This document shows positions 1 to 38,039 of a stretch of 39,572 bases of DNA, piece by piece. Positions within the stretch are counted from its first letter, which is position 1. Each line of letters starts with the position of its first letter. The DNA comes from a virus (lineage: Duplodnaviria > Heunggongvirae > Uroviricota > Caudoviricetes): the IMG/VR virus record IMGVR_UViG_2531839178_000021, positions 1-39,572 of that record, one strand, 5' to 3'. The translations under genes were made by a program, and so were the position numbers. A model generated the notes under the pieces. It worked only from the letters and a program-made list of their open reading frames with translations. It searched no databases and had not been told where the DNA came from.

Positions 1-17
1 TTAAGCGCAGCTATTTA
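1..17. mobile_element. Terminal 15 bp of an IS630-family element whose body lies upstream of the window, plus TA target duplicate
   Basis: bp 1-15 ttaagcgcagctatt is the exact reverse complement of the left terminus (29888-29902) of the complete IS630-like copy in this window; TA follows at 16-17 as at that copy's junctions. Confidence 0.8.
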
Positions 18-894
18 GTATCCGTTGTAGCGTGATAATACTTCCTCCATTAATCATGAAATGAGTGGCAAAGCTGTGCCTTAGTGCATGTGTGGCTTGC
101 CCCATTGGCAAATCCGGTTTTATTGCTTTCATTGTTCGTCTGAAGCGAGGGTAATCAGCATCAGGGAATAAAAAACCTCGTTTGTTATCCGCGATCATTT
201 TGGCAACAGCCTCTGAGATCGGGACGGTGCGTGGTTTGTTTGTTTTCGTTTTAACAAACGTGACGCGGTTATGGATGATATTTTCTGCTTTCAAACGAGC
301 TGCTTCTCCCCAACGTGCTCCAGTACTCAGGCAAAGAATCGCAATCTTTTTGTTGTCGCCGTCAAGAGCAGCAAGCAGTAAGGCAATTTCTTCCTGCGTG
401 AGATAGCCTGTGTCTGGTTTTTCCTCCTTAAGCCTTTTTGTCCCTCTGATAGGGTGCTCACCAAAGAATAACTCCGCTTCAATCAGGGCTGTAAACATGC
501 CGCTAATACATGTTAAATCACGATTGATACTCGAAGGTTTAATACCCTGACTTCTTCGGGTGGCGCAGTACTGGCTGATAAGCGATTTCGTAATTTGAAA
601 TGCGCATGGGTCATTCGTTATTTTTGTGAAGATTTCAATTTTTCCAAGATTAGATTTCCCATGCTCTTCGTGTTTACCCTTTAAATCCCACCAGATCTGT
701 GTCAGCTCCGACAGACGTCGCTTGTCTGTTGGTTTTGATAGCCATTCTTTATTGTGGTGGTTGTACAACGTGTATTTCTCGAAAGCGACAGCTTCGCTTT
801 TCTTATCAAACTTCCTACGGATGCGTTTTCCATTACGTCCAGTAGGGCGGATGTCCACTTCATATCGACCATCATCGAGTTTTTTGATTGCCAT
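1..894 (-). pseudogene. int: P2-type tyrosine integrase, truncated at its 3' end by the IS630 insertion; last codons (..NSCA stop) are IS-derived and the C-terminal catalytic Tyr region is absent
   Basis: 297-codon ORF beginning MAIKKLDDGRYEVDIRPTG; ends ..ALRHSFATHFMINGGSIITLQRIL then IS terminal repeat; no downstream LGH..Y motif. Confidence 0.85.
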
Positions 895-2179: not shown

Positions 2180-2239
2180 GGCTGTGTCCCTTAATCATCT
2201 GAGCTATAGTAACTGTCTGTTTACACAACATATTGAACT

Positions 2240-2689
2240 ATGGCTCGCTACGACCTTCCCGATGAGGCATGGACCATCATCAAGCCCCTGTTACCTCCTG
2301 AACCCGCCACACCACGGGCCGGACGCCCATGGGCTGAGCACCGTAAAATCATCAATGGCATGTTCTGGGTGTTATGTTCCGGTGCACCATGGCGCGATTT
2401 ACCCGAACGATATGGGTCATGGAAAACTGTTTATAACCGCTTTAACCGATGGTCAAAGTCAGGCGTGATTAATATTATTTTCAACAGGTTGCTTTCGCTA
2501 CTTGATGCAAACGGCTTTATTGACTGGTCTGCCACCGCGCTGGATGGCAGTAATATCCGGGCGCTGAAATGTGCCGCCGGTGCTCAAAAAAACATCCCGA
2601 TATCGACGGAGATAATGGGCTGGGTCGCTCTCGCGGCGGTTTTGGCACCAAAATCCATCTGGCAACAGACGGAAGTGGCCTCCCGTTAA
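2240..2689 (+). CDS. IS transposase OrfA (DUF4096-like N-terminal part)
   Basis: MARYDLPDEAWTIIKPLLPPEPATPRAGRPWAEHRKIINGMFWVLCSGAPWRDLPERYGSWKTVYNRFNRW; A7 run at 2586-2592 places OrfB in the -1 frame. Confidence 0.8.
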   Translation: MARYDLPDEAWTIIKPLLPPEPATPRAGRPWAEHRKIINGMFWVLCSGAPWRDLPERYGSWKTVYNRFNRWSKSGVINIIFNRLLSLLDANGFIDWSATALDGSNIRALKCAAGAQKNIPISTEIMGWVALAAVLAPKSIWQQTEVASR

Positions 2690-3084
2690 ATATCGTGCTA
2701 AGCCCCGGACAAGCTCATGAAAGCCAGTTCGCGCAACGACTTCTGGACGGGATTGGCGTTCAGCGTCAGAACGGCAGCATGAAACGCCGTGGACATGCGG
2801 TACTGGCTGATAAAGCGTATTCAGGGCGCGCATTGCGCAACGAGCTGAAAAATAACGGTATAAAGGCAGTAATCCCCCGAAAGTCAAATGAGAAAATGGC
2901 ATCGGATGGACGTGCACAGCTTGATCGTGATGCGTACTGCAATCGTAATGTCGTTGAACGGTGCTTTGGGCGGCTGAAAGAATATCGCCGCATCGCCACG
3001 CGTTACGACAAAACGGCGAGAAATTACCTGGCGATGGTGAAACTGGGCTGCATCCGACTCTTTTATCAACGCTTACGTAATTAA
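2569..3084 (+). CDS. IS transposase OrfB (DDE catalytic part), expressed as OrfAB fusion by -1 frameshift
   Basis: ...ADKAYSGRALRNELKNNGIKAVIPRKSNE...NRNVVERCFGRLKEYRRIATRYDKTARNYL, IS4/IS5-superfamily C-terminal signature. Confidence 0.8.
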   Translation: MCRRCSKKHPDIDGDNGLGRSRGGFGTKIHLATDGSGLPLNIVLSPGQAHESQFAQRLLDGIGVQRQNGSMKRRGHAVLADKAYSGRALRNELKNNGIKAVIPRKSNEKMASDGRAQLDRDAYCNRNVVERCFGRLKEYRRIATRYDKTARNYLAMVKLGCIRLFYQRLRN

Positions 3085-3097
3085 GGGACACAGCCTA

Positions 3098-3295
3098 ACA
3101 GTCAGTCAGCGTCGTACTTTATTTATGCACGCCGGATTGACAGAAAAAGAATTTAATCAGCCATACTGGCGAATTAATGAAGAGTCATGTTACTGGCGTG
3201 ATGCTTTATTCCGTGCATTACGTGAATTATTCAGCCTGTTTGAGTATGCACCGACAATTCTGACGTCGGTAAAACCAGAGCAATATCTGCATTAA
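3098..3295 (+). pseudogene. B: Replication gene B, 3' part (65 codons) downstream of IS
   Basis: in-frame continuation TVSQRRTLFMHAGLTEKEFNQPYWRINEESCYWRDALFRALRELFSLFEYAPTILTSVKPEQYLH, stop 3293-3295. Confidence 0.8.
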
Positions 3296-3358
3296 GTAAT
3301 TAACCAGAGTTTTTAACGCACTTAATTGTGCGGGGCTTCTTTTTGCCTGGAGAAAGTC

Positions 3359-3583
3359 ATGCATACAGTTTCTGAAAATCAGTGCGGTAAATACGCATTA
3401 CTGCTGCAACAGGCCAGAACCGAAGCACAGGCCGACGCGGCGACGCGCTTTTCTTCTCATCTTGACGTCATGATTCGCCACATCACAAAGGCGGAGTTAT
3501 CCCGCGTGGAGATAGTCGAGCTGCTCAGTCAGGAGTCGGAAAAATTTCACAATATCGGATTGTCTCGCGGGGAGGTACTTTGA
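3359..3583 (+). CDS. Small early-operon protein (P2 orf80-like)
   Basis: ATG 3359 with GGAGAAAG upstream; [24 protein letters not shown]. Confidence 0.6.
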
Positions 3584-3882
3584 TGTCCTGCTCTCATTCA
3601 GTTGTATTACTGAATAACGCCTTAAAAATCGCCGTTATGAAAAATGGCGATTTGTCTCTTATTCAACTTTGTCTTGATAAAGAAAAACGCGACATCACTG
3701 AATCTGTTATCGCGATTTATCAGAATGAATTAAACCTCCTGTCTGATGTGGTCAATTTACTTGTTAAACGCGCTGTATTCCACAAGCAAATTTCCTCAGT
3801 GGATGAACTGACAAAATTAACGACAGAACTTGCCAGTTATTGCGCTGATGTATACAGGAAACTTAACGATAAAAGGAGCTGA
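3580..3882 (+). CDS. Small early-operon protein (P2 orf81-like)
   Basis: 100-aa ORF, start overlaps previous stop (ATGA). Confidence 0.6.
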
Positions 3883-3884
3883 TA

Positions 3885-4109
3885 ATGCCGGACAACGTAG
3901 ATTTTATTCAGGAACAACAGGCTGAATTACTGGAGCGCCAGATTAACGCGGCAAGGGTAAAACATTGCGGTGCTTCTGCGCTGGTTTGCGAAGAGTGTGA
4001 CGCGCCAATACCTGCTGCCCGTCGTGCGGCTTATCCGTCAGCCACGCGTTGTGTTTCCTGTCAGTCAGTCTTTGAAGCAAAAAATAAACATTACCGGAGA
4101 ACGGCATGA
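3885..4109 (+). CDS. Small C4 zinc-finger protein (TraR/DksA-like; P2 orf82-like)
   Basis: CEECDAPIPAARRAAYPSATRCVSCQ, a Cx2C..Cx2C motif. Confidence 0.65.
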   Translation: MPDNVDFIQEQQAELLERQINAARVKHCGASALVCEECDAPIPAARRAAYPSATRCVSCQSVFEAKNKHYRRTA

Positions 4110-4381
4110 GTATTCGTATTGAAATTGGCGAACGTTATGTCGTTACCAGTGACAGCTTCCAGTTTATTCTCCACGAGAAAAAGAGAGCGGAAAGCGGTAA
4201 AAACGCCGGTCAGGAATGGCTGGCGGTGGTTGGTTATTACCCGAAATTAAGCCAGCTTGTTTCCGGCCTGATGCATCACGATATTCTGACCGGAAGCGCA
4301 AAGTCTTTTGCTGATTTAAACGCGCAGGTTGAGCAACTCAGCAAGCGTTGTTCAGAGGCTTTTGGCTCATATGGCCGTTAA
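4106..4381 (+). CDS. Small early-operon protein (P2 orf83-like)
   Basis: 91-aa ORF MSIRIEIGERYVVTSDSFQFILHEKKRAESGKNAGQEW; translationally coupled. Confidence 0.6.
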   Translation: MSIRIEIGERYVVTSDSFQFILHEKKRAESGKNAGQEWLAVVGYYPKLSQLVSGLMHHDILTGSAKSFADLNAQVEQLSKRCSEAFGSYGR

Positions 4382-6653
4382 AGCCTCCGGGCGTTTTGTC
4401 CCTCCGTCAGCATTTGCTGCAGGCACCGGTAAGGCGTTTACCGGTGCTTATGCATGGAACGCGCCACGCGAGGCTGTCGGGCGCGAAAGACCCTTTACAC
4501 GTGACGAGATGCGTCAGGTGCAAGGTGTTTTATCCACGATTAACCGCCTGCCTTACTTTTTGCGCTCGCTGTTTACTTCACGCTATGACTACATCCGGCG
4601 CAATAAAAGCCCGGTACACGGGTTTTATTTCCTCACATCCACTTTTCAGCGTCGTTTATGGCCGCGCATTGAGCGTGTGAATCAGCGCCATGAAATGAAC
4701 ACCGACGCGTCGTTGCTGTTTCTGGCAGAGCGTGACCATTATGCGCGCCTGCCGGGAATGAATGACAAGGAGCTGAAAAGGTTTGCCGCCCGTATCTCAT
4801 CGCAGCTTTTCATGATGTATGAGGAACTCTGCGATGCCTGGGTGGATGCGCATGGCGAAAAAGAATCGCTGTTTACGGATGAGGCGCAGGCGCATCTGTA
4901 TGGTCATGTTGCTGGCGCTGCACGTGCTTTCAATATTTCCCCGCTTTACTGGAAAAAATACCGTAAAGGATAGATGACCACGAGGCAGGCATATTCTGCC
5001 ATTGCCCGTCTGTTTAACGATGAGTGGTGGACTCATCAGCTTAAAGGCCAGCGTATGCGCTGGCATGAGGCGTTATTGATAGCTGTCGGGGAGGTCAATA
5101 AAGACCGTTCTCCTTATGCCAGTAAACATGCCATTCGTGATGTGCGTGCGCGCCGTCAGGCAAATCTGGAGTTTCTTAAATCGTGTGACCTTGAAAACAG
5201 GGAAACCGGCGAACGCATCGACCTTATCAGTAAGGTGATGGGCAGTATTTCTAATCCTGAAATTCGCCGGATGGAGCTGATGAACACCATTGCCGGTATT
5301 GAGCGTTACGCCGCCGCAGAGGGTGATGTGGAGATGTTTATCACGCTGACCGCGCCGTCAAAGTATCACCCGACACGTCAGGTCGGAAAAGGCGAAAGTA
5401 AAACCGTCCAGCTTAATCACGGCTGGAATGATGAGGCATTTAATCCGAAGGATGCGCAGCGTTATCTCTGCCGTATCTGGAGCCTGATGCGCACGGCATT
5501 CAAGGATAATGATTTACAGGTCTACGGTTTGCGAGTCGTCGAGCCACACCACGACGGAACGCCGCACTGGCATATGATGCTTTTTTGTAATCCACGCCAG
5601 CGTAACCAGATTATCGAAATCATGCGTCGCTACGCGCTCAAAGAGGATGGCGACGAAAGAGGAGCTGCGCGAAACCGTTTTCAGGCAAAACACCTTAACC
5701 GGGGCGGTGCTGCGGGATATATCGCGAAATACATTTCAAAAAACATCGACGGCTATGCACTGGATGGTCAGCTCGATAACGATACCGGCAGGCCGCTGAA
5801 AGACACCGCCGCGGCTGTTACTGCATGGGCGTCAACGTGGCGCATCCCGCAATTTAAAACGGTTGGCCTGCCGACAATGGGGGCTTACCGTGAACTACGC
5901 AAATTGCCTCGCGGCGTCAGTATTGCTGATGAGTTTGACGAACGCGTCGAGGCTGCACGCGCTGCCGCAGACAGTGGTGATTTTGCGTTGTATATCAGCG
6001 CGCAGGGTGGGGCAAATGTTCCGCGCGATTGTCAGACTGTCAGGGTTGCCCGTAGTCCGTCGGATGAAGTTAACGAGTACGAGGAAGAAGTCGAGAGAGT
6101 GGTCGGCATTTACGCGCCGCATCTCGGCGCGCGTCATATTCATATCACCAGAACGACGGACTGGCGCATTGTTCCGAAAGTGCCGGTCGTTGAGCCTTTG
6201 ACTTTAAAAAGCGGCATCGCCGCGCCTCGGAGTCCTGTCAATAACTGTGGAAAGCTCACCGGTGGTGATACTTCGTTACCGGCTCCCACACCTTCTGAAC
6301 ACGCCGCAGCAGTGCTTAATCTGGTTGATGACGGTGTTATCGAATGGAATGACACGGAGGTCGTGAGGGCGCTCAGGGGCGCATTAAAACACGGCCTGAG
6401 AAGACCAAACCGTCAGCAAAGAAACGGAAGCCCGTTAAAACCGCATGAAATAGCGCCATCGGCCAGACTGACCCGGTCGGAAAGAATGCAAATTACCCGT
6501 ATCCGCGTTGACCTTGCTCAGAACGGTATCAGGCCGCAGCGATGGGAGCTTGAGGCGCTGGCGCGTGGTGCGACCGTAAATTACAACGGGAAAAAATTTA
6601 CGTATCCGGTCGCTGATGAGTGGAGTTGGTTTTATTGTTATTCAGAGCAATAA
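4371..6653 (+). pseudogene. A: Replication initiation protein A (rolling-circle nickase), 761 codons, interrupted by an in-frame TAG at 4971-4973
   Basis: ORFs 4329-4973 and 4974-6653 are in the same frame separated only by TAG; combined span from ATG 4371 matches the recalled 761-aa length of P2 gpA; HUH-like region ..PHWHMMLF.. and GYIAKYISK present. Confidence 0.8.
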
Positions 6654-6769
6654 ACATCTGATTTAATTTGTTGCATAATAGTAAAATTGCTGTTTATCTG
6701 CATGTGTTAACTATTGATAATTATGTTGCTAATAATGTGTGCAAATTTATACTGAAAAAGGTGAAAACG

Positions 6770-6922
6770 ATGAATGATATCTTTGTTCTTACAAGGGAAG
6801 AGCTTGAAACACTAGATTATAGTGTTTTTATGCATATACCAGTTACATTTCATGCACATAAAATAAAAAATATCTGGATGGGATTGCTGAATCATCAGAA
6901 AACCCCAAAGAGAAAAAATTAG
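6770..6922 (+). CDS. Cargo locus ORF segment 1 (frame 2), possibly the N-terminus of one larger gene
   Basis: ATG 6770 with AAGGTG 7 nt upstream; low-GC; frame-1 ORF opens at 6862 overlapping this segment across A6 runs (6865-6870, 6913-6918). Confidence 0.45.
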   Translation: MNDIFVLTREELETLDYSVFMHIPVTFHAHKIKNIWMGLLNHQKTPKRKN

Positions 6923-6936
6923 CATCTCTTTTTGGT

Positions 6937-7242
6937 ATGCTATATAGTTTCAATTTGCAAGTTGTTAACAACACTCCATCATTTGAACCCCAAATGATTT
7001 GGGGTAATAAAAGATCAATATTGCCTGAAGATTTTGATGAGCAGGTGAATGACTGTCTTTTATATGTTTCTCAAAAAATAACCAATCCATTTTTGTTATC
7101 AAGAATATATGATGTTGTTTGGTGTAATAATCGGAAAAATAAAGACGTGGCAATTAAAGCAATTGATTCCTATGCTGAAATGCTAAATATAGCAATTGAA
7201 AAGCTAATAATAAAAACGAAAGCATGGATGAAAGTGATTTAA
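6937..7242 (+). CDS. Cargo locus ORF segment 2 (frame 1), hypothetical
   Basis: 101-aa ORF MLYSFNLQVVNNTPSFEPQMIWGNKRS...; overlaps segment 3 by 19 nt across an A5 run (7212-7216). Confidence 0.45.
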   Translation: MLYSFNLQVVNNTPSFEPQMIWGNKRSILPEDFDEQVNDCLLYVSQKITNPFLLSRIYDVVWCNNRKNKDVAIKAIDSYAEMLNIAIEKLIIKTKAWMKVI

Positions 7243-8600
7243 ATTGCTTTATTTTTGCTCGTGATTATATTGCTAGGGCTTTGCACATTAATAAAATGGT
7301 CTACCCTAGAAAATCAGAAGGAAACATGGCGATTAAAAATGCCATTCATTCTCTTTATAGTATTCAAAATGAAAGATTAATCTTTGAAGGTTTCAATAAT
7401 TTGACTTGGTTTATGGTGCGTGATTTTGATGGGTATAATCTGCAGTATGCGGAAAATGCTGAGAAGATGGCTGAGCAGCATAAAGATAAAAAATATTATG
7501 ATGCTGTAAAATCACTTTATATGACAAGTGCAGTTATTTATGAAAAAAATGGTGAGTATGAACGTGCCAAGAGATGTAAACTGGCATCTGCAAATATTAC
7601 TATTAAAGTTGCAACAGATCGACCTGATAATATGGGTAAGATCTCTTGGTTAAGAACAGCTATCTCTGAATTAAGACAGTACGGTGGTGATAGCCAACAG
7701 ATAGAAGATTTAAAGGAACAACTTGCTAATTTGAGAGAAGAAGTAAGGAGTGAATATGTCACTTTAAGCCATTCTATTGATATTAGTGACTTGGTTGCTG
7801 AAAGTGAAAAAAAACTGACGGGGCGTTCTTTGCCCGATATATTCAAAGTTTTAATGCGTGAAACACCGATTGAAAATATTGAAAGCATGAGGGAACAAGT
7901 TTTAAGATTATCAGAAAAAAGTTTATTCTCTAGTTTTGTTGGAACAGAAATTAATGATGAGAGTGGGCGTAAGATATATACAATCCCGCCGTTGGATAAT
8001 AAAAAAGATATGAGTGATGATGTTGTTATTGATCAATATCTAAGAAATTTCGAGATTACTCATAAGATTTTTGTAAACGGTGTCTTTGAACCTGCTCGCT
8101 ATGTACTTTCTCAAGAACATGGCTTGACGTTGTCAACATTCGTTAAATTGGTTACAACTAGTCCAATTGTCAAGCCGGAGTTTAGGGAGATTTTTAATTT
8201 GGGCTTTTACAAATTATGGCAGGGAGATTACATCAGTGCAGCTTATCTTTTAATACCACAAATGGAGGGTATGGTTCGTTATTATTATGAGCTTAGTGGA
8301 AAGGATGCTACTAGATATTTGGATAAGGGATTAGAGGAGTCAACAAGTATTTCTCAGCTTCTAGATAAATGCAGAGATGATTTGGAAAGTATCTTTTCTA
8401 AAAATCTTGTTTTGACTATCGATGTTCTTTTTAACAGAAAGAGTGGGGCAACCTTAAGACATAAATTAGCACATGGTAATTTATATACTAATGCTTGTTA
8501 CGATGAAACAACGACATATGCATGCATCCTGATTTTCTTTCTGTGTGCTTATCCTCTCCTACCATATTTTGATACTGTTTTTGAACAGGGCTCTGTTTGA
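7224..8600 (+). CDS. Cargo protein, 458 aa, unknown function with C-terminal HEPN-like R-x4-H motif; candidate abortive-infection/defence effector
   Basis: low-GC ORF; motif RHKLAHG encoded at 8457-8477; coiled-coil-like EDLKEQLANLREEVRSEY; no Walker A, so not an Old-type ATPase. Confidence 0.6.
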   Translation: MDESDLNCFIFARDYIARALHINKMVYPRKSEGNMAIKNAIHSLYSIQNERLIFEGFNNLTWFMVRDFDGYNLQYAENAEKMAEQHKDKKYYDAVKSLYMTSAVIYEKNGEYERAKRCKLASANITIKVATDRPDNMGKISWLRTAISELRQYGGDSQQIEDLKEQLANLREEVRSEYVTLSHSIDISDLVAESEKKLTGRSLPDIFKVLMRETPIENIESMREQVLRLSEKSLFSSFVGTEINDESGRKIYTIPPLDNKKDMSDDVVIDQYLRNFEITHKIFVNGVFEPARYVLSQEHGLTLSTFVKLVTTSPIVKPEFREIFNLGFYKLWQGDYISAAYLLIPQMEGMVRYYYELSGKDATRYLDKGLEESTSISQLLDKCRDDLESIFSKNLVLTIDVLFNRKSGATLRHKLAHGNLYTNACYDETTTYACILIFFLCAYPLLPYFDTVFEQGSV

Positions 8601-8751
8601 TAACGTATACGTTGAGGCATAAAACCTATGCATACTTAGCTGCATCAATTTGCACGAGGTATTTCAGTATGCATTTTCTGCGTAATAGTAGGGATTGCTT
8701 GGTTTGGTAGTTGTAATTCAACTGCATTCAAACCGACCCATGAAGCGGGCG

Positions 8752-8770
8752 GGCGAGGCGGGGAAAGCAC
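8752..8770. other. cos: cos site (19-nt cohesive end sequence of P2-type phages)
   Basis: GGCGAGGCGGGGAAAGCAC matches the recalled P2 cohesive end; located between the A-side cargo and Q as expected. Confidence 0.7.
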
Positions 8771-8912
8771 TGCGCGCTGGCGGTGGTGCTGATTTTATTT
8801 TTTCAGCGTCTCAGCGCGTCGTGACGGCGCTTAGTCTGCCCGTTGGGGTGTTGGTGTGTCTGCGGGCTGTTTTGTGCTGTGGTGAGCGTGTGAGGGCGTG
8901 ATGACGGGATGT

Positions 8913-8934
8913 AAAAAAGCCGCCCGCAGGCGGC
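8913..8934 (-). terminator. Rho-independent terminator downstream of Q
   Basis: minus strand GCCGCC-tgcg-GGCGGC followed by TTTTTT. Confidence 0.6.
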
Positions 8935-8939
8935 GATGT

Positions 8940-9929
8940 TCAGCCGTTGTCAGTGTCCAGTGAGTAGTTTTTAAAGCGGATGACCTCCTGACCGAGCCAG
9001 CCGTTTATCTCGCGGATCCTGTCCTGTAACGGGATAAGCTCATTGCGGACAAAGACCTTTGCCACTTTCTCAATATCACCCAGCGACCCGACGTTCTCCG
9101 GCTTGCCGCCCATCAACTGAAAGGGGATGCGGTGCGCGTCAAGCAGGTCAGCGGCGCTGGCTTTTTTGATATTAAAAAAATCGTCCTTCGTTGCCACTTC
9201 ACTGAGCGGGATAATTTTAATGCCGTCGGCTTTTCCCTGTGGGGCATAGAGAAACAGGTTTTTAAAGTTGTTGCGGCCTTTCGACTTCACCATGTTTTCG
9301 CGAAGCGTTTCGATATCGTTGCGATCCTGCACGGCATCAGTGACGTACATGATATATCCGGCATGAGCGCCGTTTTCGTAATACTTGCGGCGGAACAGCG
9401 TGGCCGACTCATTCAGCCAGGCAGAATTAAGGGCGCTGAGATATTCCGGCAGACCGTACAGCTCCTGATTAATATCCGGCTCCAGCAGGTGAAACACGGA
9501 TCCGGGCGCGAAGGCTGTCGGCTCGTTAAAGGACGGCACCCACCAGTAAACATCCTCCTCCACGCCACGGCGGGTATATTTTGCCGGTGAGGTTTCCAGT
9601 CTGATGACCTTACCGGTGGTGCTGTAACGCTTTTCCAGAAACGCATTACCGAACACCAGAAAATCCAGCACAAAGCGGCTGAAATCCTGCTGGGACAGCC
9701 ACGGGTGCGGGATAAACGTTGAAGCCAGAATATTACGTTTGACGTAAATCGGTGAGCTGTGATGCACGGCAGCACGCAGGCTTTTTGCCAGACCGGTAAA
9801 GCTGATTGGTGGCTCATACCATCTGCTGTTACTGATGCATTCGACGTAATCCAGAATGTCACGGTGGTCGAGTACCGGCACCGGCTCACCAAAGGTGAAT
9901 ACCTCCATTTTCGGGGCGCTGGCGGTCAT
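8940..9929 (-). CDS. Q: Portal protein Q; N-terminus frame-broken (probable true start ATG at 9973)
   Basis: 329-aa ORF MTASAPKMEVFTFGEPVPVLDHRDILDYVECISNSRWYEPP; upstream ATG at 9973-9971 with GGAG 8 nt upstream, out of frame by one base across a 5-nt homopolymer (plus-strand T-run 9960-9964). Confidence 0.85.
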   Translation of the reverse strand: MTASAPKMEVFTFGEPVPVLDHRDILDYVECISNSRWYEPPISFTGLAKSLRAAVHHSSPIYVKRNILASTFIPHPWLSQQDFSRFVLDFLVFGNAFLEKRYSTTGKVIRLETSPAKYTRRGVEEDVYWWVPSFNEPTAFAPGSVFHLLEPDINQELYGLPEYLSALNSAWLNESATLFRRKYYENGAHAGYIMYVTDAVQDRNDIETLRENMVKSKGRNNFKNLFLYAPQGKADGIKIIPLSEVATKDDFFNIKKASAADLLDAHRIPFQLMGGKPENVGSLGDIEKVAKVFVRNELIPLQDRIREINGWLGQEVIRFKNYSLDTDNG

Positions 9930-10034: not shown

Positions 10035-11744
10035 TTAACAGGGCGTGCATGGTCGCCCAGGCGAGGTCGGCGTGGCTGGCTTCCTCGCTGCGGCTGGCCT
10101 CATAGGTGGCCTGCGTCCGCTGCTGGTCATGGTCTTGCGGATAGCCATGAACGAGCTGGTGATGTCGGTGGCGCTGACGTCATATTCCAGACAGCCACGG
10201 CGGATAACGTCTTTTGCCTTGAGCACCATTGCGGTTTTCATTTCCGGCGTGTAGCGGATGTCGCGCGCGGCGGGATAGAACGAGCGCACAAGCTGGAACA
10301 CGCCGACACCGAGGCCGGTGGCATCAATACCGATGTATTCGACGTTGTATTTTTCGGTGAGTTTGCGGATGGATTCCGTCTGGGTGGCAAAGTCCATACC
10401 TTTCCACTGGTGACGCTCAAGTATTCTGAATTTGCCACCGGCCACCACCGGCGGTGCCAGTACCACGCATCCGGCGCTGTCGCCACGGTGTGACGGGTCG
10501 TAACCAATCCATACCGGTCGGGAGCCGAACGGATTGGCGGCAAACGGCGCATAGTCTTCCCATTCTTCCAGCGTGTCGACCATGCAGCGTTGCAGCTCCT
10601 CGAACGGGAATACCGATGCCTTGTCGTCAACAAATTCACACATGAACAGGTTTTTAAAATCGTCGGCGCTGTTTTCGCGTTTAAGCTGCTCAATGTCGAA
10701 CAGCGTGCAGCCACCTTTCAGGGCGTCCTCAATGGTGACAATCTGCCGCCACTGGCCGTCCGCACAGAGAAGCCCACCGGCAAGGGCGTTATGACTGATG
10801 TCGATTTCCACGCGTTCGGCGGCGCTGGCGCGTCCCCGGTTAAACAGTTCACCCGACCAGAACGGGTAGGCGTCGTGCGCCAGCGTGGACGGGGTGGAGA
10901 AATAGGTCGAGCGCAGGTGACTCTGTGAGGCCATACCTGATGCCATCTTACGCAGTACCTGAAAATTCGGGATCCAGAACATCTCGTCGACGTACAGGTC
11001 GCCGTTATGGCTCTGCGCGGTGTTGGAGTTGGTGCCGAGAAAAATCAGTTTTGCGCCGTTATTGCCCAGGACAATCGGGTCACCGGTCAGGTCAACGTCA
11101 ACCAGCCGGGCAAAGGCGATGATGTATTCGCGGAACACATACGCCTGTGTTTTACTGGCCGACAGAAAAATCTGGTTATGACCGGTTTTCAGGGCGCGCA
11201 GCAGCGCCTCGCGGGAAAAATAAAACGTCGCGCCAATCTGGCGGGATTTCAGGATATCGCGGATGCGGTGCTCAAGCCCGGCGCGATACCAGTGCAACTG
11301 ATATTCGAAAGACTGCTCAAAGAAAATCTGCTCCAGCTTTTCGATGGCTTCGTCACTGAAAAAATTCTTTTTCGGTTTGCGACGCCCGCCTTTGTTGCGG
11401 TTAGCGACGTTCGGATTAAGGTCTGCCTCGTTGCCGGTCTGACTGTAGCGGTTGACCCGCGCCAGTCGTTCAATCTGGCGTCCCAGCAGGTCAATTTCCT
11501 TGAAGTCACCGCCGGTTTTCTGCGGTTTGATAATGAGCTGGGTCAGCCGCGCTTCCAGACTCATTTCGACACGGCTGATGGGGGCAACGCTGTCCCAGCC
11601 GTCGCGCTGTTTCCAGCTCTGCACCGTCGGGCGTTTCATCTGCAACATGGCGGCAATCTGCGGCACGGAAAACCCCTGCCAGTACAGCAGCGCCGCCTGA
11701 CGACGCGGGTCGTGCAAAAGAGTGGTGTCTGTGGTGATGGTCAT
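10035..11744 (-). CDS. P: Terminase large (ATPase) subunit P; 3' end frame-broken
   Basis: MTITTDTTLLHDPRRQAALLYWQGFSVPQIAAM...; C-terminal ~30 codons are Pro/Arg-rich, while the adjacent frame gives ..YEASRSEEASHADLAWATMHALLNEPLTAGISTPLTSTILEFY ending in TGA overlapping the upstream Q ATG (TGATG). Confidence 0.85.
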   Translation of the reverse strand: MTITTDTTLLHDPRRQAALLYWQGFSVPQIAAMLQMKRPTVQSWKQRDGWDSVAPISRVEMSLEARLTQLIIKPQKTGGDFKEIDLLGRQIERLARVNRYSQTGNEADLNPNVANRNKGGRRKPKKNFFSDEAIEKLEQIFFEQSFEYQLHWYRAGLEHRIRDILKSRQIGATFYFSREALLRALKTGHNQIFLSASKTQAYVFREYIIAFARLVDVDLTGDPIVLGNNGAKLIFLGTNSNTAQSHNGDLYVDEMFWIPNFQVLRKMASGMASQSHLRSTYFSTPSTLAHDAYPFWSGELFNRGRASAAERVEIDISHNALAGGLLCADGQWRQIVTIEDALKGGCTLFDIEQLKRENSADDFKNLFMCEFVDDKASVFPFEELQRCMVDTLEEWEDYAPFAANPFGSRPVWIGYDPSHRGDSAGCVVLAPPVVAGGKFRILERHQWKGMDFATQTESIRKLTEKYNVEYIGIDATGLGVGVFQLVRSFYPAARDIRYTPEMKTAMVLKAKDVIRRGCLEYDVSATDITSSFMAIRKTMTSSGRRPPMRPAAARKPATPTSPGRPCTPC

Positions 11745-12772: not shown

Positions 12773-12845
12773 CCGGCGTCAGTCAGTCCGGGAAAACCTT
12801 CACGATTAACCCTTAATTTCAGGAAAAACTATGCGCCAGGAAACC

Positions 12846-14271
12846 TAATGCCGATCAGTTAAGGATCAGTTGACCGATCCAGTGGCTGTGTAAGAATCCG
12901 GAAACGCTCACTTGTTTCCGGATTTTTTTATGCACATTGGACAGGCTCTTGATCTGGTATCCCGTTACGATTCTCTGCGTAACCCACTGACTTCTCTGGG
13001 GGATTACCTCGACCCCGAACTCATCTCTCGTTGCCTTGCCGAATCAGGTACTGTAACGCTACGCAAGCGCCGTCTTCCCCTCGAAATGATGGTCTGGTGT
13101 ATTGTTGGCATGGCGCTTGAGCGTAAAGAACCTCTTCACCAGATTGTGAATCGCCTGGACATCATGCTGCCGGGCAATCGCCCCTTCGTTGCCCCCAGTG
13201 CCGTTATTCAGGCCCGCCAGCGCCTGGGAAGTGAGGCTGTCCGCCGCGTGTTCACGAAAACAGCGCAGCTCTGGCATAACGCCACGCCGCATCCGCACTG
13301 GTGCGGCCTGACCCTGCTGGCCATCGATGGTGTGTTCTGGCGCACACCGGATACACCAGAGAACGATGCAGCCTTCCCCCGCCAGACACATGCCGGGAAC
13401 CCGGCGCTCTACCCGCAGGTCAAAATGGTCTGCCAGATGGAACTGACCAGCCATCTGCTGACGGCTGCAGCCTTCGGCACGATGAAGAACAGCGAAAATG
13501 AGCTTGCTGAGCAACTTATAGAACAAACCGGCGATAACACTCTGACGTTAATGGATAAAGGTTATTACTCACTGGGACTGTTAAATGCCTGGAGCCTGGC
13601 GGGAGAACACCGCCACTGGATGATACCTCTCAGAAAGGGAGCGCAATATGAAGAGCTCAGAAAACTGGGTAAAGGCGATCATCTGGTGAAGCTGAAAACC
13701 AGCCCGCAGGCACGAAAAAAGTGGCCGGGACTGGGAAATGAAGTGACAGCCTGCCTGCTGACCGTGACGCGCAAAGGAAAAGTCTGCCATCTGCTGACGT
13801 CGATGACGGACGCCATGCGCTTCCCCGGAGGAGAAATGGCGGATCTGTACAGTCATCGCTGGGAAATCGAACTGGGATACAGGGAGATAAAACAGACGAT
13901 GCAACTGAGCAGGCTGACGCTGAGAAGTAAAAAGCCGGAGCTTGTGGAGCAAGAGCTGTGGGGTGTCTTACTGGCTTATAATCTGGTGAGATATCAGATG
14001 ATTAAAATGGCGGAACATCTGAAAGGTTACTGGCCGAATCAACTGAGTTTCTCAGAATCATGCGGAATGGTGATGAGAATGCTGATGACATTGCAGGGCG
14101 CTTCACCGGGACGTATACCGGAGCTGATGCGCGATCTTGCAAGTATGGGACAACTTGTGAAATTACCGACGAGAAGGGGAAGGGCCTTCCCGAGAGTGGT
14201 AAAGGAGAGGCCCTGGAAATACCCCACAGCCCCGAAAAAGAGCCAGTCAGTTGCTTAACTGACTGGCATTA
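12846..14271 (+). mobile_element. IS4, 1426 bp, with 13-bp target-site duplication gcgccaggaaacc
   Basis: ends taatgccgatcagttaag ... cttaactgactggcatta; identical 13-mers at 12833-12845 and 14272-14284. Confidence 0.9.
12930..14258 (+). CDS. insG: IS4 transposase (442 aa)
   Basis: [71 protein letters not shown]. Confidence 0.9.
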
Positions 14272-15346
14272 GCGCCAGGAAACCCGCTTTAAATTTAATG
14301 CCTACCTGTCCCGTGTTGCCGAACTGAACGGCATCGACGCCGGTGATGTGTCGAAAAAATTCACCGTTGAACCGTCGGTCACCCAGACCCTGATGAACAC
14401 CATGCAGGAGTCCTCTGACTTTCTGACCCGCATCAACATTGTGCCGGTCAGCGAAATGAAAGGGGAAAAAATTGGCATCGGTGTCACCGGCTCCATCGCC
14501 AGCACCACCGACACCGCCGGTGGGACTGAGCGTCAGCCGAAGGACTTCTCGAAGCTGGCGTCTAACAAGTACGAATGCGACCAGATTAACTTCGATTTTT
14601 ATATCCGCTACAAAACGCTTGACCTGTGGGCGCGTTATCAGGATTTCCAGCTCCGTGTCCGTAACGCCATTATCAAACGCCAGTCCCTTGATTTCATCAT
14701 GGCCGGTTTTAACGGCGTGAAGCGTGCCGAAACTTCTGACCGCAGCAGCAATCCGATGTTGCAGGATGTGGCGGTCGGCTGGTTGCAGAAATACCGCAAT
14801 GAAGCCCCGGCGCGCGTGATGAGCAAGGTCACTGACGAGGAAGGGCGCACCACCTCTGAGGTTATCCGCGTGGGTAAGGGCGGCGATTATGCCAGCCTTG
14901 ATGCACTGGTGATGGATGCGACCAACAACCTGATTGAACCGTGGTATCAGGAAGACCCTGACCTTGTGGTGATTGTGGGACGTCAGCTACTGGCGGACAA
15001 GTATTTCCCCATCGTCAACAAAGAGCAGGACAACAGCGAAATGCTGGCCGCTGATGTCATCATCAGCCAGAAACGCATCGGTAACCTGCCGGCGGTACGC
15101 GTCCCGTACTTCCCGGCGGATGCGATGCTCATCACGAAGCTGGAAAACCTGTCCATCTACTACATGGATGACAGCCATCGCCGCGTGATTGTGGAAAACC
15201 CGAAACTCGACCGCGTGGAGAACTACGAGTCAATGAACATTGATTACGTGGTGGAAGACTATGCCGCCGGTTGTCTGGTGGAGAAAATTAAGGTCGGTGA
15301 TTTCTCCACACCGGCTAAAGCGACCGCAGAGCCGGGAGCGTAACCG

Positions 15347-15640
15347 ATGACGAGTCCCGCACAGCGCCACATGATGCGGGTCTCGGCAGCGATGACCGCG
15401 CAGCGGGAAGCCGCCCCGCTGCGACATGCAACTGTCTATGAGCAGATGCTGGTTAAGCTCGCCGTAGACCAGCGCACACTGAAAGCAATTTATTCAAAAG
15501 AGCTGAAGGCCGCGAAAAAACGCGAACTGCTGCCGTTCTGGTTGCCGTGGGTGAATGGCGTGCTGCCGCACGGCACCGCCGTCGAACTGCCCGACGTTCA
15601 GACCGCGCCCGTGGCTGAAACTGTCAATCTGTGGGAGTAA
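15347..15640 (+). other. 97-codon ORF, probably an in-frame fusion remnant of terminase small subunit M (5' part) and tail protein X (3' end) left by deletion of most of M, all of L and most of X
   Basis: only ~300 bp separate N stop (15343) from holin Y start (15644), where P2 order N-M-L-X-Y needs ~1.4 kb; the M and X assignments of the two halves are from memory. Confidence 0.5.
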
Positions 15641-18901: not shown

Positions 18902-19468
18902 CTATTTGATTGACTCTATTTTGGTATGTTGCTCCTTTAAGAAGGAGTCGCACTTTTCGAAAAATTGACGCCCTTCGTTTAAACTATCAATGTATTTTTT
19001 ATATGTGTCAACATTGCTGGAGCTTAAAACTTCTTTAACCATTGCTAATGGCAGTTCTCTAAGAGAAAAGTCTATCTGTGCTCTGCTCCGCTCATCGAAT
19101 TCATTATAGTTATACAGAGCAAAATCCTTGATGGTTCTTAGTGGTGAAAAGTGAGACTCTATTTCCGGAGAGAGAATGCTTGGTTCAATGATAAATCTAA
19201 AAAAGCAAGTGAATATAAGGTTGATGCTGTTGTTATCTTCTCCCTTTTCTCTTAAGAAACTTTTAAAGGTGTCGCCAATCATAGCAATGTTGTGCTGGGA
19301 TTTTTTGTCCCAATCTTCAGGGTTTTCGGAAATGAAGTTTATTGCTTGAGCAATTATTTTGTTTCTGTTTGATTCAAAGTTTGTGCCGGGAGTCAGCGTG
19401 TTCAAAAAGACCAGATAATCTTTGAACAATTCTTTCATTGTTTCTGACGAGAAAAAGTAAGTACTCAT
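18902..19468 (-). CDS. Hypothetical cargo protein (~188 aa), unknown function
   Basis: low-GC ORF on the strand opposite to the tail genes, inserted between S and V; start taken at ATG 19468 (MSTYFFSSETMKELF); the longer ORF to 19564 uses GTG and overlaps the V start. Confidence 0.5.
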   Translation of the reverse strand: MSTYFFSSETMKELFKDYLVFLNTLTPGTNFESNRNKIIAQAINFISENPEDWDKKSQHNIAMIGDTFKSFLREKGEDNNSINLIFTCFFRFIIEPSILSPEIESHFSPLRTIKDFALYNYNEFDERSRAQIDFSLRELPLAMVKEVLSSSNVDTYKKYIDSLNEGRQFFEKCDSFLKEQHTKIESIK

Positions 19469-19554
19469 AATGGATTTTGTTGTCCCTTGTTGTTCTGTGC
19501 ACCAGAAATCGTGGTGTGATTTACTTCGAGATTGTACAGAATCATTATTATCGA

Positions 19555-20184
19555 ATGAATGCACAATACAATGAAATTCTTCGCTTTATACGCAATATGA
19601 TTCGCACTGGCATTATTGTCGAAACCGACCTTAATGCCGGTCGCTGCCGTGTGCAGACCGGCGGCATGTGCACCGACTGGCTTCAGTGGCTGACCCATCG
19701 CGCCGGACGTTCGCGCACATGGTGGGCACCTTCCGTGGGGGAACAGGTGCTGATTCTGGCCGTGGGCGGTGAACTCGACACGGCGTTCGTTCTGCCGGGG
19801 ATTTATTCCTGCGATAACCCCGCGCCGTCTGCGTCGGCGGATGCCCTGCATATCCGTTTCCCTGACGGGGCGGTGATTGAGTATGAACCCGAAACCAGTG
19901 CACTCACGGTAAGCGGAATTAAAACGGCCAGCGTGACGGCTTCTGATTCTGTTACTGCCACGGTGCCGGTGGTCATGGTGAAAGCGTCAACCCGCATCAC
20001 CCTGGACACCCCGGAGGTGGTCTGCACCAACAGACTGATTACCGGCACGCTGGAAGTGCAGAAGGGCGGGACGATGCGCGGCAACATTAAACATACCGGC
20101 GGTGAACTCTCATCAAACGGTAAGGTACTGCATACCCATAAACACCCCAGCGACAGCGGCGGCACAACCGGGAGTCCTCTATGA
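19555..20184 (+). CDS. V: Baseplate spike protein V
   Basis: MNAQYNEILRFIRNMIRTGIIVETDLNAGRCRVQTGGMCTDWLQWL. Confidence 0.85.
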   Translation: MNAQYNEILRFIRNMIRTGIIVETDLNAGRCRVQTGGMCTDWLQWLTHRAGRSRTWWAPSVGEQVLILAVGGELDTAFVLPGIYSCDNPAPSASADALHIRFPDGAVIEYEPETSALTVSGIKTASVTASDSVTATVPVVMVKASTRITLDTPEVVCTNRLITGTLEVQKGGTMRGNIKHTGGELSSNGKVLHTHKHPSDSGGTTGSPL

Positions 20185-22860: not shown

Positions 22861-22931
22861 TTCAGAAAGATCAGAACGGTGCGGATATCCCTGATAAAGA
22901 ACGCTTCCTGAGTAACATTAGGCTGTGTCCC

Positions 22932-23444
22932 TTAATTACGTAAGCGTTGATAAAAGAGTCGGATGCAGCCCAGTTTCACCATCGCCAGGTAATTTCTCGC
23001 CGTTTTGTCGTAACGCGTGGCGATGCGGCGATATTCTTTCAGCCGCCCAAAGCACCGTTCAACGACATTACGATTGCAGTACGCATCACGATCAAGCTGT
23101 GCACGTCCATCCGATGCCATTTTCTCATTTGACTTTCGGGGGATTACTGCCTTTATACCGTTATTTTTCAGCTCGTTGCGCAATGCGCGCCCTGAATACG
23201 CTTTATCAGCCAGTACCGCATGTCCACGGCGTTTCATGCTGCCGTTCTGACGCTGAACGCCAATCCCGTCCAGAAGTCGTTGCGCGAACTGGCTTTCATG
23301 AGCTTGTCCGGGGCTTAGCACGATATTTAACGGGAGGCCACTTCCGTCTGTTGCCAGATGGATTTTGGTGCCAAAACCGCCGCGAGAGCGACCCAGCCCA
23401 TTATCTCCGTCGATATCGGGATGTTTTTTGAGCACCGGCGGCAC
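22932..23444 (-). CDS. IS transposase OrfB (copy 2)
   Basis: same protein as 2569-3084 apart from the N-terminal residues at the A-run. Confidence 0.75.
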   Translation of the reverse strand: MPPVLKKHPDIDGDNGLGRSRGGFGTKIHLATDGSGLPLNIVLSPGQAHESQFAQRLLDGIGVQRQNGSMKRRGHAVLADKAYSGRALRNELKNNGIKAVIPRKSNEKMASDGRAQLDRDAYCNRNVVERCFGRLKEYRRIATRYDKTARNYLAMVKLGCIRLFYQRLRN

Positions 23445-23775
23445 ATTTCAGCGCCCGGATATTACTGCCATCCAGCGCGGTGGCAGACCAGTCAATAAAG
23501 CCGTTTGCATCAAGTAGCGAAAGCAACCTGTTGAAAATAATATTAATCACGCCTGACTTTGACCATCGGTTAAAGCGGTTATAAACAGTTTTCCATGACC
23601 CATATCGTTCGGGTAAATCGCGCCATGGTGCACCGGAACATAACACCCAGAACATGCCATTGATGATTTTACGGTGCTCAGCCCATGGGCGTCCGGCCCG
23701 TGGTGTGGCGGGTTCAGGAGGTAACAGGGGCTTGATGATGGTCCATGCCTCATCGGGAAGGTCGTAGCGAGCCAT
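23401..23775 (-). CDS. IS transposase OrfA (copy 2); with A6 the OrfB frame is +1 rather than -1
   Basis: MARYDLPDEAWTIIKPLLPP...AQKTSRYRRR stop. Confidence 0.7.
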   Translation of the reverse strand: MARYDLPDEAWTIIKPLLPPEPATPRAGRPWAEHRKIINGMFWVLCSGAPWRDLPERYGSWKTVYNRFNRWSKSGVINIIFNRLLSLLDANGFIDWSATALDGSNIRALKCAAGAQKTSRYRRR

Positions 23776-24682
23776 AGTTCAATATGTTGTGTAAACAGAC
23801 AGTTACTATAGCTCAGATGATTAAGGGACACAGCCTAGTGTTTTTTATGTTGAAGCCAGAGCTTTCCCTGTACAAATTCTTGCAGAGGAAGGGCTAACGG
23901 TTATTGTTCCGACAGAGGATTATGTCGTCGGTCAAACGACATATAAGTGGGGGGCAACTAATCCCGCTACAGAAAGCACGAACGCACAGGCTATTCTGGA
24001 TTTTAAAAATGGACGTGGTTATTACTGTTCACATCCATTTATTTCCAGCCTTTCAGGAAATGCTGCAACAGCAACGAAGTTAGCGAACGCAAGAAATATT
24101 AATGGTGTCAGATTTGATGGCTCTGCCGATATAAATATTAATACACTGGTATCCAGAAACCGTGTTACTGCATTAGGTGGGAGCGTAAAGGGGACACCAG
24201 GTATTCAGATGTATGAGGCATACAACAATGGCTACCCAACAGCCTATGGTAATGTGCTTCATCTCACTGGCGTAACCGCAGTAGGAGAGGGTGAGTTACT
24301 TATTGGTTGGAGTGGAACCAGCGGTGCTCATGCTCCGGCATATATTCGTTCCCGACGAGATACCACAGATGCTAACTGGTCTGGATGGGCGCAACTATAT
24401 ACAACTGCTCATAAACCCTCAGCGGGAGATGTTGGTGCATACACCAAAACTGAGTCAGATTCACGTTATGTGAGAGACATGCGGCTGGGCGGTGCATCTA
24501 CATATAAACCAGCAAATAATGGTACTACATGGACGCATCAGGCTCCGTCAGGTTGCGTATATACCGGCATTATTGTTCAGGATACCGGCTCAAACTCTGC
24601 CGATAACATTGGTGGCGTATATTACAGACCGGTGCAGAAATACATTAACGGGACATGGTATAACGTGGTGCAGGTATAATTT

Positions 24683-26545: not shown

Positions 26546-27846
26546 CTGAGGGATCCCCACAAAATTACTGCTAATAAACCAGTACCATATTTCGGTAGGT
26601 TCTGGACAGATGGTTTAGAACTGTGCTCAGTACTGTTCGTCTTAAAATAAGTGGCGAGTGTCGAAGAACATTCTTCGCTAACGTCAGATATGAGATAACC
26701 CGCCGGGATTTAATGCTGTTAGCCTGATATTTCAGGTGTAACCCTTTATTTTCAGCGTGATAACCGAGTAACCACATTACGATAGTGCTCAACGTTGCCA
26801 GCAGACTCAGAACCAGAATTCTTCCTGTTGAACGACTTTTGCTGGCCCGAAGACCAAATCCGAAGCGCCCGTTCTTTTCATCACGAAAGTTTTGCTCTAT
26901 CTGCATTCGCCGACTGTATAACTTGATGATTTCTCGCGCTCTGAAGTCATTTGTACTGCTGAAGATCAACCAGGCTTCTTTTGCTGATTTGCTCTGTTCT
27001 TTGTCTGTTTTGTTTAAACCACTCTGACCTTTCGAACGTTTCTTTTTTCGCCCTTTTGCCGATTTCTTATAGGTGTAAAAATGCCCCCGGATGCTTTTTT
27101 TCCTTTCTTTAACCAGCCTTCCAGCCCCCATATATTCCGGTGTTTTACATTCAGGGCTATCCGACACTTTTAACCATCTTTCAGGCGCGTTATCGAGGCA
27201 ATACTGAACGTTATTTCTGATCCGACCAATAAAATCCCAGCCCAGAGAAGTAATATGGTGAAACCATGCGCTCTGAAATCCAGCATCCGTGACAATAATA
27301 ACCCTGGCATCGGGGGGCAGGGATTGAGCAAGGGAATCAAGGAAATCATGTTGTATCAATGGATTATTTTGTTTTTCAGAAGGAACAACCTTACTCAATA
27401 ACGGAATGGAACGCCCGTCACACAGAAGGCTGGCACGAAGAACATGATGCTCCTGGGAGGGATAGCCACTCCAGTCTACGGCTATTACACATAAAGATAA
27501 CTGCCGTGTCAGCATTGAAGTGATATTCCTGAAAATCATTGGAATATCGCGATGGAGCGCCTCATTACCCATGAGGCGATCAATACGTTTGCTCTTATTC
27601 TTAACTTGTGCATTACCCGGGAAAAAACGTCCGATACTGGTCAGCGTCAGAGATGCTCCGTTGATTAACGCCACTGTGGCATCCATCAGGGCATTTTGTC
27701 GGTACTGATGAAATGGTGCTAAGGCATCCCGGAAGAAATTCTGACATACTTTATGAACAGGCATAGCAGTGATCTCATTGAATTGTTGGCACAAATCAGT
27801 AGATCACATAATGCTATGTCTGTCTCGTTTTCTGGGAATTCCTCAG
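26546..27846 (-). mobile_element. IS10-like (IS4-family) insertion sequence, ~1.3 kb, with 9-bp target-site duplication CCCTCCGGG
   Basis: ends CTGAGGGATCCCC (26546-) and its reverse complement (-27846); identical 9-mers at 26537-26545 and 27847-27855. Confidence 0.8.
26571..27764 (-). CDS. IS10-like transposase (~397 aa)
   Basis: KRIDRLMGN, VDWS, VLRAS, TDAGFQSAWF, SLGW, SKGRKKKRS, SAKEAW, IKLYSRRMQIEQNFRD, FGLRAS: motifs shared with the IS10 transposase. Confidence 0.8.
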   Translation of the reverse strand: MPVHKVCQNFFRDALAPFHQYRQNALMDATVALINGASLTLTSIGRFFPGNAQVKNKSKRIDRLMGNEALHRDIPMIFRNITSMLTRQLSLCVIAVDWSGYPSQEHHVLRASLLCDGRSIPLLSKVVPSEKQNNPLIQHDFLDSLAQSLPPDARVIIVTDAGFQSAWFHHITSLGWDFIGRIRNNVQYCLDNAPERWLKVSDSPECKTPEYMGAGRLVKERKKSIRGHFYTYKKSAKGRKKKRSKGQSGLNKTDKEQSKSAKEAWLIFSSTNDFRAREIIKLYSRRMQIEQNFRDEKNGRFGFGLRASKSRSTGRILVLSLLATLSTIVMWLLGYHAENKGLHLKYQANSIKSRRVISYLTLAKNVLRHSPLILRRTVLSTVLNHLSRTYRNMVLVY

Positions 27847-28116: not shown

Positions 28117-28902
28117 ATGTACGATTATAGTTTTTTACTTACTCCATCTACAGGATTTGTTAAAGGATTATGTGGAGTTTGGTCGAATGATTTCTCTATA
28201 AATGATGATTCTGACTCTGATTTAGGGCAAACAGATATTCATTTACTTTCATCTCCTCATTTGAATATCATATCCGACCCAAATGAATTGGCTTCCAAGT
28301 TAAAAGGTTTGTTGATGCTCATGAACGGCGCACTTAGCGTTCTTTATGGTTTTGAAAGATATCAATCTTTTGGTCCTCTTTCTATTTCTGGAAGTGAAGG
28401 CATTAATTACTCGGAAATATGCGGCTTTAAATCAATGGATGTAACTCAGGTAAACCCCTTTAATTTCCATGACATACAGCAACCACACCCTCGCGCTGAT
28501 AATTTTTCACGATTAATTAATTTATCATCTAAACATGAATCCTTACGTGTTGTTTTAGGTATGTGTGCCTTAGGTTATGATTGGGTTAATCTTTATCGTT
28601 TGTGGGAAACAATTAGAGAATATGTATATGATAAATATGTGAAAGGTATACTAAATTTCCCCGACGCTTATAAAGGCAAGAAATATCAGAGAGATAAAGT
28701 AATTAGCATGGCTTTTAATATTGATGAAAAGGAAATCAGCAGATTCACGGGCACTGCTAATAGCTTTGAACTGTTAGGGTATCTTGCGAGACATGGAAAG
28801 GGAAGTTCCGGAGGGATATTAAAAAATCCGATGTCAAGAGTTGACGCAAGCATTTTCGTACACAAAGCAACTTACAAATATTGTAAGTTATTTTTGATGT
28901 AA
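28117..28902 (+). CDS. Hypothetical cargo protein (261 aa), unknown function
   Basis: low-GC ORF with AAGAGGGA RBS; no recognisable motif. Confidence 0.6.
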   Translation: MYDYSFLLTPSTGFVKGLCGVWSNDFSINDDSDSDLGQTDIHLLSSPHLNIISDPNELASKLKGLLMLMNGALSVLYGFERYQSFGPLSISGSEGINYSEICGFKSMDVTQVNPFNFHDIQQPHPRADNFSRLINLSSKHESLRVVLGMCALGYDWVNLYRLWETIREYVYDKYVKGILNFPDAYKGKKYQRDKVISMAFNIDEKEISRFTGTANSFELLGYLARHGKGSSGGILKNPMSRVDASIFVHKATYKYCKLFLM

Positions 28903-29816: not shown

Positions 29817-29887
29817 AAAAGTTATGCTTCTTTGTTTTTTTCATCTATGTGGGGAGAATAAAATCATACTTTTTATATCTGATCCTA

Positions 29888-31041: not shown

Positions 31042-31214
31042 TAGGTCTGACCAGCAACCTATTGATCAAAAAACCAAGATATTAGCTAAAAAAATCAGCA
31101 TACTTGAGACCAAGCTCAATGTCCGCTCCTCGCTCAAAGCAGACTGTCAGATTTGATAGCATTTGGGCTATGTAAATTGTCAGGCGGAAAATGAGTGAGT
31201 ACAAATCAGGACAG

Positions 31215-37938: not shown

Positions 37939-37949
37939 TTACAAACAGA

Positions 37950-37976
37950 AAGCCCCTCAGTCGAGGGGCTTTTTTG
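37950..37976 (+). terminator. Rho-independent terminator after ogr
   Basis: AGCCCCTC-agtc-GAGGGGCT followed by TTTTT. Confidence 0.75.
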
Positions 37977-38039
37977 TCGATGTGGTCAATGTGTGGACGT
38001 GACCAGAAATAAATCCTTTTATTTCAATTTATTGTACGT

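Follow-up and report, generated by a model that had tools for sequence, protein, structure and literature searches.

An in-frame amber codon in replication gene A of a P2-like prophage of Shigella boydii, very probably a mark of prophage decay

Gene A and its in-frame amber codon

The 39,572-nucleotide (nt) stretch analysed here, IMG/VR virus record IMGVR_UViG_2531839178_000021 (the window, meaning the whole of this stretch), was identified by exact-protein match as AKNA01000058.1 of the draft genome of Shigella boydii 965-58 (GCA_000268145.1), and carries a P2-like prophage in which replication gene A is interrupted by a stop codon. In phage P2 the product of this gene, gpA, is a cis-acting HUH rolling-circle initiator and nicking enzyme. 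The interruption is an in-frame TAG on the plus strand at 4971-4973, codon 201 when counted from the ATG at 4371 ((4971-4371)/3 = 200), and it is abutted by an ATG (4974-4976) that opens a 559-codon open reading frame (ORF) closing at TAA 6651-6653. An earlier note, made from the letters alone, had described two ORFs in the same frame, 4329-4973 and 4974-6653, parted only by this TAG with an ATG next to it, and we confirmed both their coordinates and their frame. By tblastn, residues 1-759 of P2 gpA mapped to 4371-6647 with 96.8% amino-acid identity; since the match is collinear in one frame, the two ORFs constitute one gene A homologue. Its true start is the ATG at 4371, overlapping the end of orf83 as in P2, the TTG at 4329 being only a mechanical ORF start. 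The earlier note had equated the span from this ATG with a 761-residue gpA; the start was right, but the 2283 nt from 4371 to 6653 make 761 codons with both stops included, and the undamaged protein would have had 760 residues, as does the A gene product of phage vB_EcoM-569R9, compared with 761 residues from 2286 nt in P2. In GenBank the 5' part (4371-4973, plus strand; codons 1-200 and the amber codon) is deposited as a 200-residue 'hypothetical protein' (EIQ29154.1), and the 3' part (4974-6653, plus strand; from the native Met202 to the stop, 559 residues) as a 'replication gene A family protein' (EIQ29155.1).

Alignment of the DNA with P2 and three relatives showed that the stop differs from the codon of the intact gene by a single C-to-T transition at 4971, which changes CAG (Gln) into TAG. 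The stop was found to be real by comparison with Logan assemblies of other read sets: SRR8186674 (matching window positions 3069-9652), ERR6005806 (3622-9652) and SRR8186692 (3070-7525) each carried the same TAG and no mismatch, their sole differences from the window being single-base indels in A-runs at 6865, 7212 and 7807. Because three independent assemblies share the TAG, it is no sequencing artefact but a genuine mutation, common to several sequenced isolates or re-sequencings of one lineage. The 559-residue product was present on nine contigs, and the exact 559- and 200-residue products were recorded from 8-10 contigs. At 6865 and 7212 the A-runs of the window lack one base that is present in the three assemblies and in an intact Escherichia coli relative, and this agreement between the assemblies and the intact relative identifies both as miscalls in the window. 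The earlier note had observed that the TAG arises by base substitution, unlike a homopolymer artefact, and had allowed for a real nonsense mutation; both views are borne out, the true homopolymer discrepancies lying elsewhere.

For the ancestral state, we compared codon 201 in a panel of 84 sequences (80 IMG/VR loci, P2, a second P2 record, vB_EcoM-569R9 and an E. coli prophage) and in 10 further loci collected through the neighbouring orf83 protein, 94 relatives in total. The codon was CAG in every one (84/84 in the panel, 10/10 in the further loci), which answers the comparison with P2 and its relatives that the earlier note had proposed. All 84 panel genes were uninterrupted, with 755-768 codons, and the A genes of the ten additional loci ran for 751-765 codons, except for two that ended near codon 706 for unrelated reasons. 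A stop-start boundary at codons 201/202 was present in none of the 94 relatives, all of which carry one continuous gene across this point, and no reference A gene has a boundary there; such a boundary was what the earlier note had named as able to overturn a mutational reading. Codon 202 was ATG in 82 of 85 sequences (the 84 panel relatives and the window) and ATA in the other three, so that Met202 is an ordinary internal residue. A 55-mer bearing the TAG had no exact copy, the best match always showing one mismatch (98.2%), in 1,671 places of 1,497 complete E. coli genomes and in 67 phage records; a 30-mer bearing the TAG had no exact match in the GTDB representative genomes, and an exact-pattern scan of IMG/VR with a 23-mer gave no match.

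Proteins of similar length to the 5' fragment are found in the databases, and we examined whether codon 201 may be a truncation hot spot or natural boundary. This was rejected, as the many 199-201-residue 'replication endonuclease, partial' proteins of E. coli and Salmonella at NCBI, whose last residue coincides with that of the amber fragment, are cut by contig ends and not by a stop codon. Many draft contigs stop exactly at nt 599 of A (loci L009-L014 of our collection), giving partial A proteins of about 200 residues that mimic the amber fragment. Codon 200 (window 4968-4970) is polymorphic, with GGA in 53 sequences and GGG in 32, and in strains with two P2-like prophages this difference likely creates a fork in the assembly graph that would explain the contig ends.

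The Pfam family Phage_GPA (PF05840) spans residues 133-462 of intact P2 A. The 200-residue piece matched only profile positions 2-63, below the family cut-off, and the 559-residue piece matched positions 66-321 with E = 8e-110; the stop thus falls between positions 63 and 66 of 321, inside the conserved region and at no domain edge. Motif I, FITLT (residues 323-327; 5337-5351), the HUH-type motif HWH (residues 399-401; 5565-5573) and the tyrosine pair Y450/Y454 in YIAKY (residues 450-454; 5718-5732), to which we presume the catalytic roles assigned in P2, all lie downstream of the stop, so that the primary 200-residue product would lack every catalytic element. The origin of replication (ori) within gene A (6189-6269, plus strand) agrees with P2 at 80 of 81 nt, and the P2 nick site, position 29892 of NC_001895, maps to 6229. 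A sequence search of the PDB with gpA gave no meaningful match.

We also counted changes private to one sequence over 2250 gap-free aligned positions of 83 distinct sequences (the window and 82 others). The window had exactly three private point changes: L42F (CTT to TTT at 4494), Q201* and G321E (GGG to GAG at 5332), the last altering a glycine two residues before FITLT. All three are G:C-to-A:T changes, all alter the protein, and each falls at a residue that is invariant in the other 82 sequences.

Other lesions and the chromosomal setting

Comparison of all P2 proteins and of the P2 DNA with the window revealed that gene A is far from the only damaged gene. The integrase gene int (1-894, minus strand) is truncated by an IS630-family insertion sequence (IS) inserted just left of window position 16, leaving a 297-residue protein made up of P2 Int residues 1-293 and four foreign residues. 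Replication gene B, which lies upstream of A in the same early operon, is split at residue 101 by an IS5-family element of about 0.92 kb (2180-3094, plus strand; terminal inverted repeats GGCTGTGTCCCTTAAT), with residues 1-101 encoded at 1877-2179 and residues 101-166 at 3095-3292; Illumina contigs break at this element, one starting at 3069 (L006) and another ending at 2204 (L097). The gene for the terminase large subunit P (minus strand) has a 1-bp deletion at 10110-10113 (GGCGCTG to GGC-CTG, 10111), outside any homopolymer, that shifts the frame at about residue 545; as the resulting 569-residue product recurs in four other read sets (SRR8186692, SRR11791543, SRR059778 and ERR200314), this frameshift is real. 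In N, the major capsid gene, an IS4 of 1426 bp (12846-14271, plus strand) has inserted after codon 5 and is flanked by a 13-bp target duplication, GCGCCAGGAAACC; with its flanks (12833-14284) it is a textbook insertion, which leaves the remainder of N parted from its start codon and first five codons. A deletion junction at 15560-15590 (plus strand) fuses the terminase small subunit gene M, at about residue 80, to X, at about residue 36, so that L is missing altogether, along with the remainder of M and the beginning of X. A second, inverted copy of the IS5-family element (22918-23837, minus strand) lies inside the tail-fibre gene H; the copies in B and H are about 20 kb apart and could recombine, which would invert the segment that they enclose. 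Further transposases of the IS4 and IS630 families are encoded at 26571-27794 and 29881-31047. Frameshifts in Q (T5/T6) and S (A5/A6) sit at homopolymers, and the one in Q does not appear in other assemblies, in which the portal protein has 344 residues; for a putative frameshift in FII, a look-up of the product returned no record. The C repressor is intact (99 residues, 99% identical to P2 C), and the early operon is thus expected to be normally off. Taken as a whole, these lesions predict a prophage that can neither excise, replicate, build capsids nor package. Since such a prophage would already be non-viable, the question of whether its A protein is active is biologically moot, a point that the earlier note had not seen.

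On the left, the prophage is flanked by the IS630-family element and then by yegR and yegS (on the upstream contig, L095); at its right end (window 37720-39572) lie ogr and then yegQ/trhP, beside which E. coli genomes annotate ogrK. A sister prophage (L096, in ERR14038794) has the identical 297-residue truncated integrase, on a contig that ends in the same IS630-type sequence, together with intact A (756 residues) and B genes, and is 96.7% identical to the window in the A region. The shared truncation suggests an old IS insertion common to both, with the replication module recombining afterwards. We rejected the use of this prophage as an aid to ordering the mutations, given an identity of only 96.7% in the A region.

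Just downstream of A, at the P2 tin/old hot spot, a cargo gene at 6668-8600 carries DUF7380/DUF4209 and gave a PADLOC match to PDC-S39, a candidate defence family (E = 9e-71); the gene is broken in the window by the two A-run miscalls at 6865 and 7212, is a single gene of 610 residues in ERR200314, and is split in two other runs that have A7 instead of A8 at 7807. At the Z/fun hot spot, a 250-residue ORF (29064-29816, minus strand) has an N-terminal endonuclease-like domain resembling PADLOC PDC-M68A and CBASS/SAVED effector endonucleases (E = 7e-24), and a neighbouring 261-residue ORF (28117-28902) had no family match. In the segment 18300-19560, unrelated sequence takes the place of P2 orf30 and includes a 220-residue ORF (18902-19564, minus strand) that had no match in Pfam, NCBIfam or PADLOC.

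Origin of the amber codon and competing explanations

The data are best explained by an ordinary process of gene loss, in which the amber codon at Gln201 of the P2-type gpA is, very probably, a real C-to-T loss-of-function mutation that made a pseudogene of A during the decay of a defunct P2-like prophage. A spontaneous C-to-T transition would have turned Gln201 (CAG) of the replication initiator into an amber codon and become fixed in the S. boydii lineage that includes strain 965-58. Translation from the ATG at 4371 would then end after 200 residues, giving a product without motif I, the HUH motif and the catalytic tyrosines, and for this reason we infer loss of function. The amber codon is only one lesion among many in this prophage, which is stranded between yegR/yegS and yegQ and in which int, the tail-fibre gene H, L, the terminase genes M and P, the capsid gene N and replication gene B are broken as well; in a prophage unable to replicate, package or excise, A would be free to decay. 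The change may have been neutral, or mildly favoured, since a chromosome-nicking enzyme is of no benefit to a prophage that cannot excise. IS expansion and gene loss are known features of Shigella. Background on the 'grounding' of prophages in general is available (PMC6379469), and searches of the open-access literature gave nothing specific on strain 965-58 or on P2 gene A amber mutations and cis-action.

Some observations weigh against so simple an account. The UAG-AUG junction is preceded by AAGGA, making it plausible that, if the early operon is transcribed, some reinitiation yields the 559-residue fragment. Low-level read-through of UAG by tRNA-Gln could restore the wild-type residue, so that some A activity may remain. 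In addition, that all three private changes in the window alter an amino acid is suggestive of lost constraint on A but not significant: the ratio of three amino-acid-changing to no synonymous changes, set against 91 to 104 for the pooled private changes of the intact relatives, gives p ~0.1, and the number is too small to prove relaxed constraint.

Positive selection for the amber codon, with the loss of A shielding the host from chromosomal nicking or from the in-situ replication of an unexcisable prophage, is an unlikely alternative. The truncation of int, combined with retention of the ori nick site within A, means that an active A protein could be harmful upon derepression, and the mutation is fixed across several isolates. 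Yet the intact C repressor holds the early operon off, the upstream B gene is already broken by an IS, fixation needs no selection in a clonal pathogen with a small effective population size, and the 94 relatives showed no recurrent knock-outs of A at codon 201.

It is very unlikely that A is a working split gene, in which a ribosome reinitiating at the abutting AUG makes 200- and 559-residue proteins that together serve some function, or in which the C-terminal nuclease does so alone. The earlier note had raised expression as two polypeptides by reinitiation. What stands of this proposal is the arrangement itself: the UAG abuts the AUG, and a Shine-Dalgarno-like AAGGA (4966-4970, plus strand), directly 5' of the TAG and 3 nt before the ATG at 4974, has a predicted duplex with the 3' end of 16S rRNA of -5.4 kcal/mol, similar to the -5.8 kcal/mol of the weak site before the native A start. 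The 559-residue fragment also retains FITLT, HWH and Y450/Y454, and the ori is intact. What does not stand is the notion of a functional boundary, as the arrangement occurs in 0/94 loci, with no exact match in the 1,671 genomic and 67 phage places, and the conserved Phage_GPA profile loses its first ~64 positions to the cut. The AAGGA bases, which encode Lys-Gly, are also present in relatives and are ancestral coding sequence, as is the ATG at codon 202, which is ATA in three relatives. Furthermore, the two additional private missense changes affect invariant residues, one of them beside motif I; the IS in the upstream B gene is likely polar; the capsid, terminase and integrase genes are not working, which leaves A nothing to replicate productively; and the intact C repressor normally keeps the operon off. 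There is likewise only a slim chance that a reinitiated, N-terminally truncated HUH nuclease of 559 residues is made on derepression and still nicks the chromosomal ori. If it were, the truncated nuclease might have been domesticated, for example to hinder P2-like phages or satellites that enter the cell, or might make the genome locally unstable.

Production of full-length gpA through an amber-suppressor tRNA or efficient read-through of UAG is highly improbable. Insertion of Gln at the UAG would restore the wild-type protein exactly, but a scan for tRNA genes, covering the 39.6-kb window alone, found none, and the relatives all have a plain CAG with nothing to suggest a read-through signal. 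Strong amber suppressors are laboratory-selected alleles and are not expected in wild Shigella.

An intact gene misread in a 454-era draft is an exceedingly remote prospect: the window does contain homopolymer miscalls, in the A-runs at 6865 and 7212, and its portal frameshift at 9965 (T5 vs T6) is not found in Illumina-type assemblies, but the TAG is a substitution outside any homopolymer, the three assemblies share it with zero mismatches over 4.5-6.6 kb, and the exact fragments recur on other contigs. Finally, a lysogen of a laboratory P2 Aam (amber) mutant, a class of mutant that is a classical genetic tool, was rejected as having a negligible probability because the A gene is only ~96.6% identical to P2, and the cargo genes differ, five IS copies are present and the host is an S. 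boydii isolate.

Relation to known systems

The reading of A as a decayed gene has a direct consequence for annotation, in that EIQ29154.1 and EIQ29155.1, deposited separately, should be read as one pseudogene. The locus also provides a clean example of a real point mutation being told from 454 homopolymer noise by independent assemblies. No new biology is involved, and no new biological question is raised.

The closest counterpart of the gene is that of P2 itself (gpA, NP_046795; PF05840), with which it is collinear over the 759 residues aligned above and with which it shares FITLT, HWH, Y450/Y454 and the internal ori, within the common operon order cox-orf78-B-orf80-83-A. It differs from P2 in having TAG for CAG at codon 201, in the two further missense changes at invariant residues, and in a length of 760 rather than 761 residues. 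P2-type gpA is encoded in one uninterrupted frame (~750-770 codons); the window gene agrees with this type in homology, motifs and internal ori and departs from it in the continuity of the frame. It resembles the pseudogenes of cryptic prophages, showing a real frame disruption relative to intact orthologues in an element in which other essential genes are inactivated.

Classical P2 Aam alleles were used to define the cis-acting replication function. Like them, the allele described here has an amber codon in gene A and, in a host without suppression, should prevent replication of the phage DNA; unlike them, it is natural, is fixed in a wild Shigella lineage and belongs to a prophage with many other defects. 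In phage phiX174, an in-frame internal start in gene A gives A*, an N-terminally shortened HUH initiator, and the internal in-frame AUG of the window could similarly give a shorter protein with the catalytic core. In phiX174, however, there is no stop codon and A* is part of normal gene expression, whereas the stop in the window is private to its lineage and not conserved.

With regard to the prophage as a whole, the cryptic P2 remnant of E. coli K-12 (ogrK by yegQ) occupies the same chromosomal locus. K-12 keeps only a stub, whereas the S. boydii prophage is nearly whole and represents an earlier stage of decay, a P2-like prophage caught midway to the stub that K-12 has kept.

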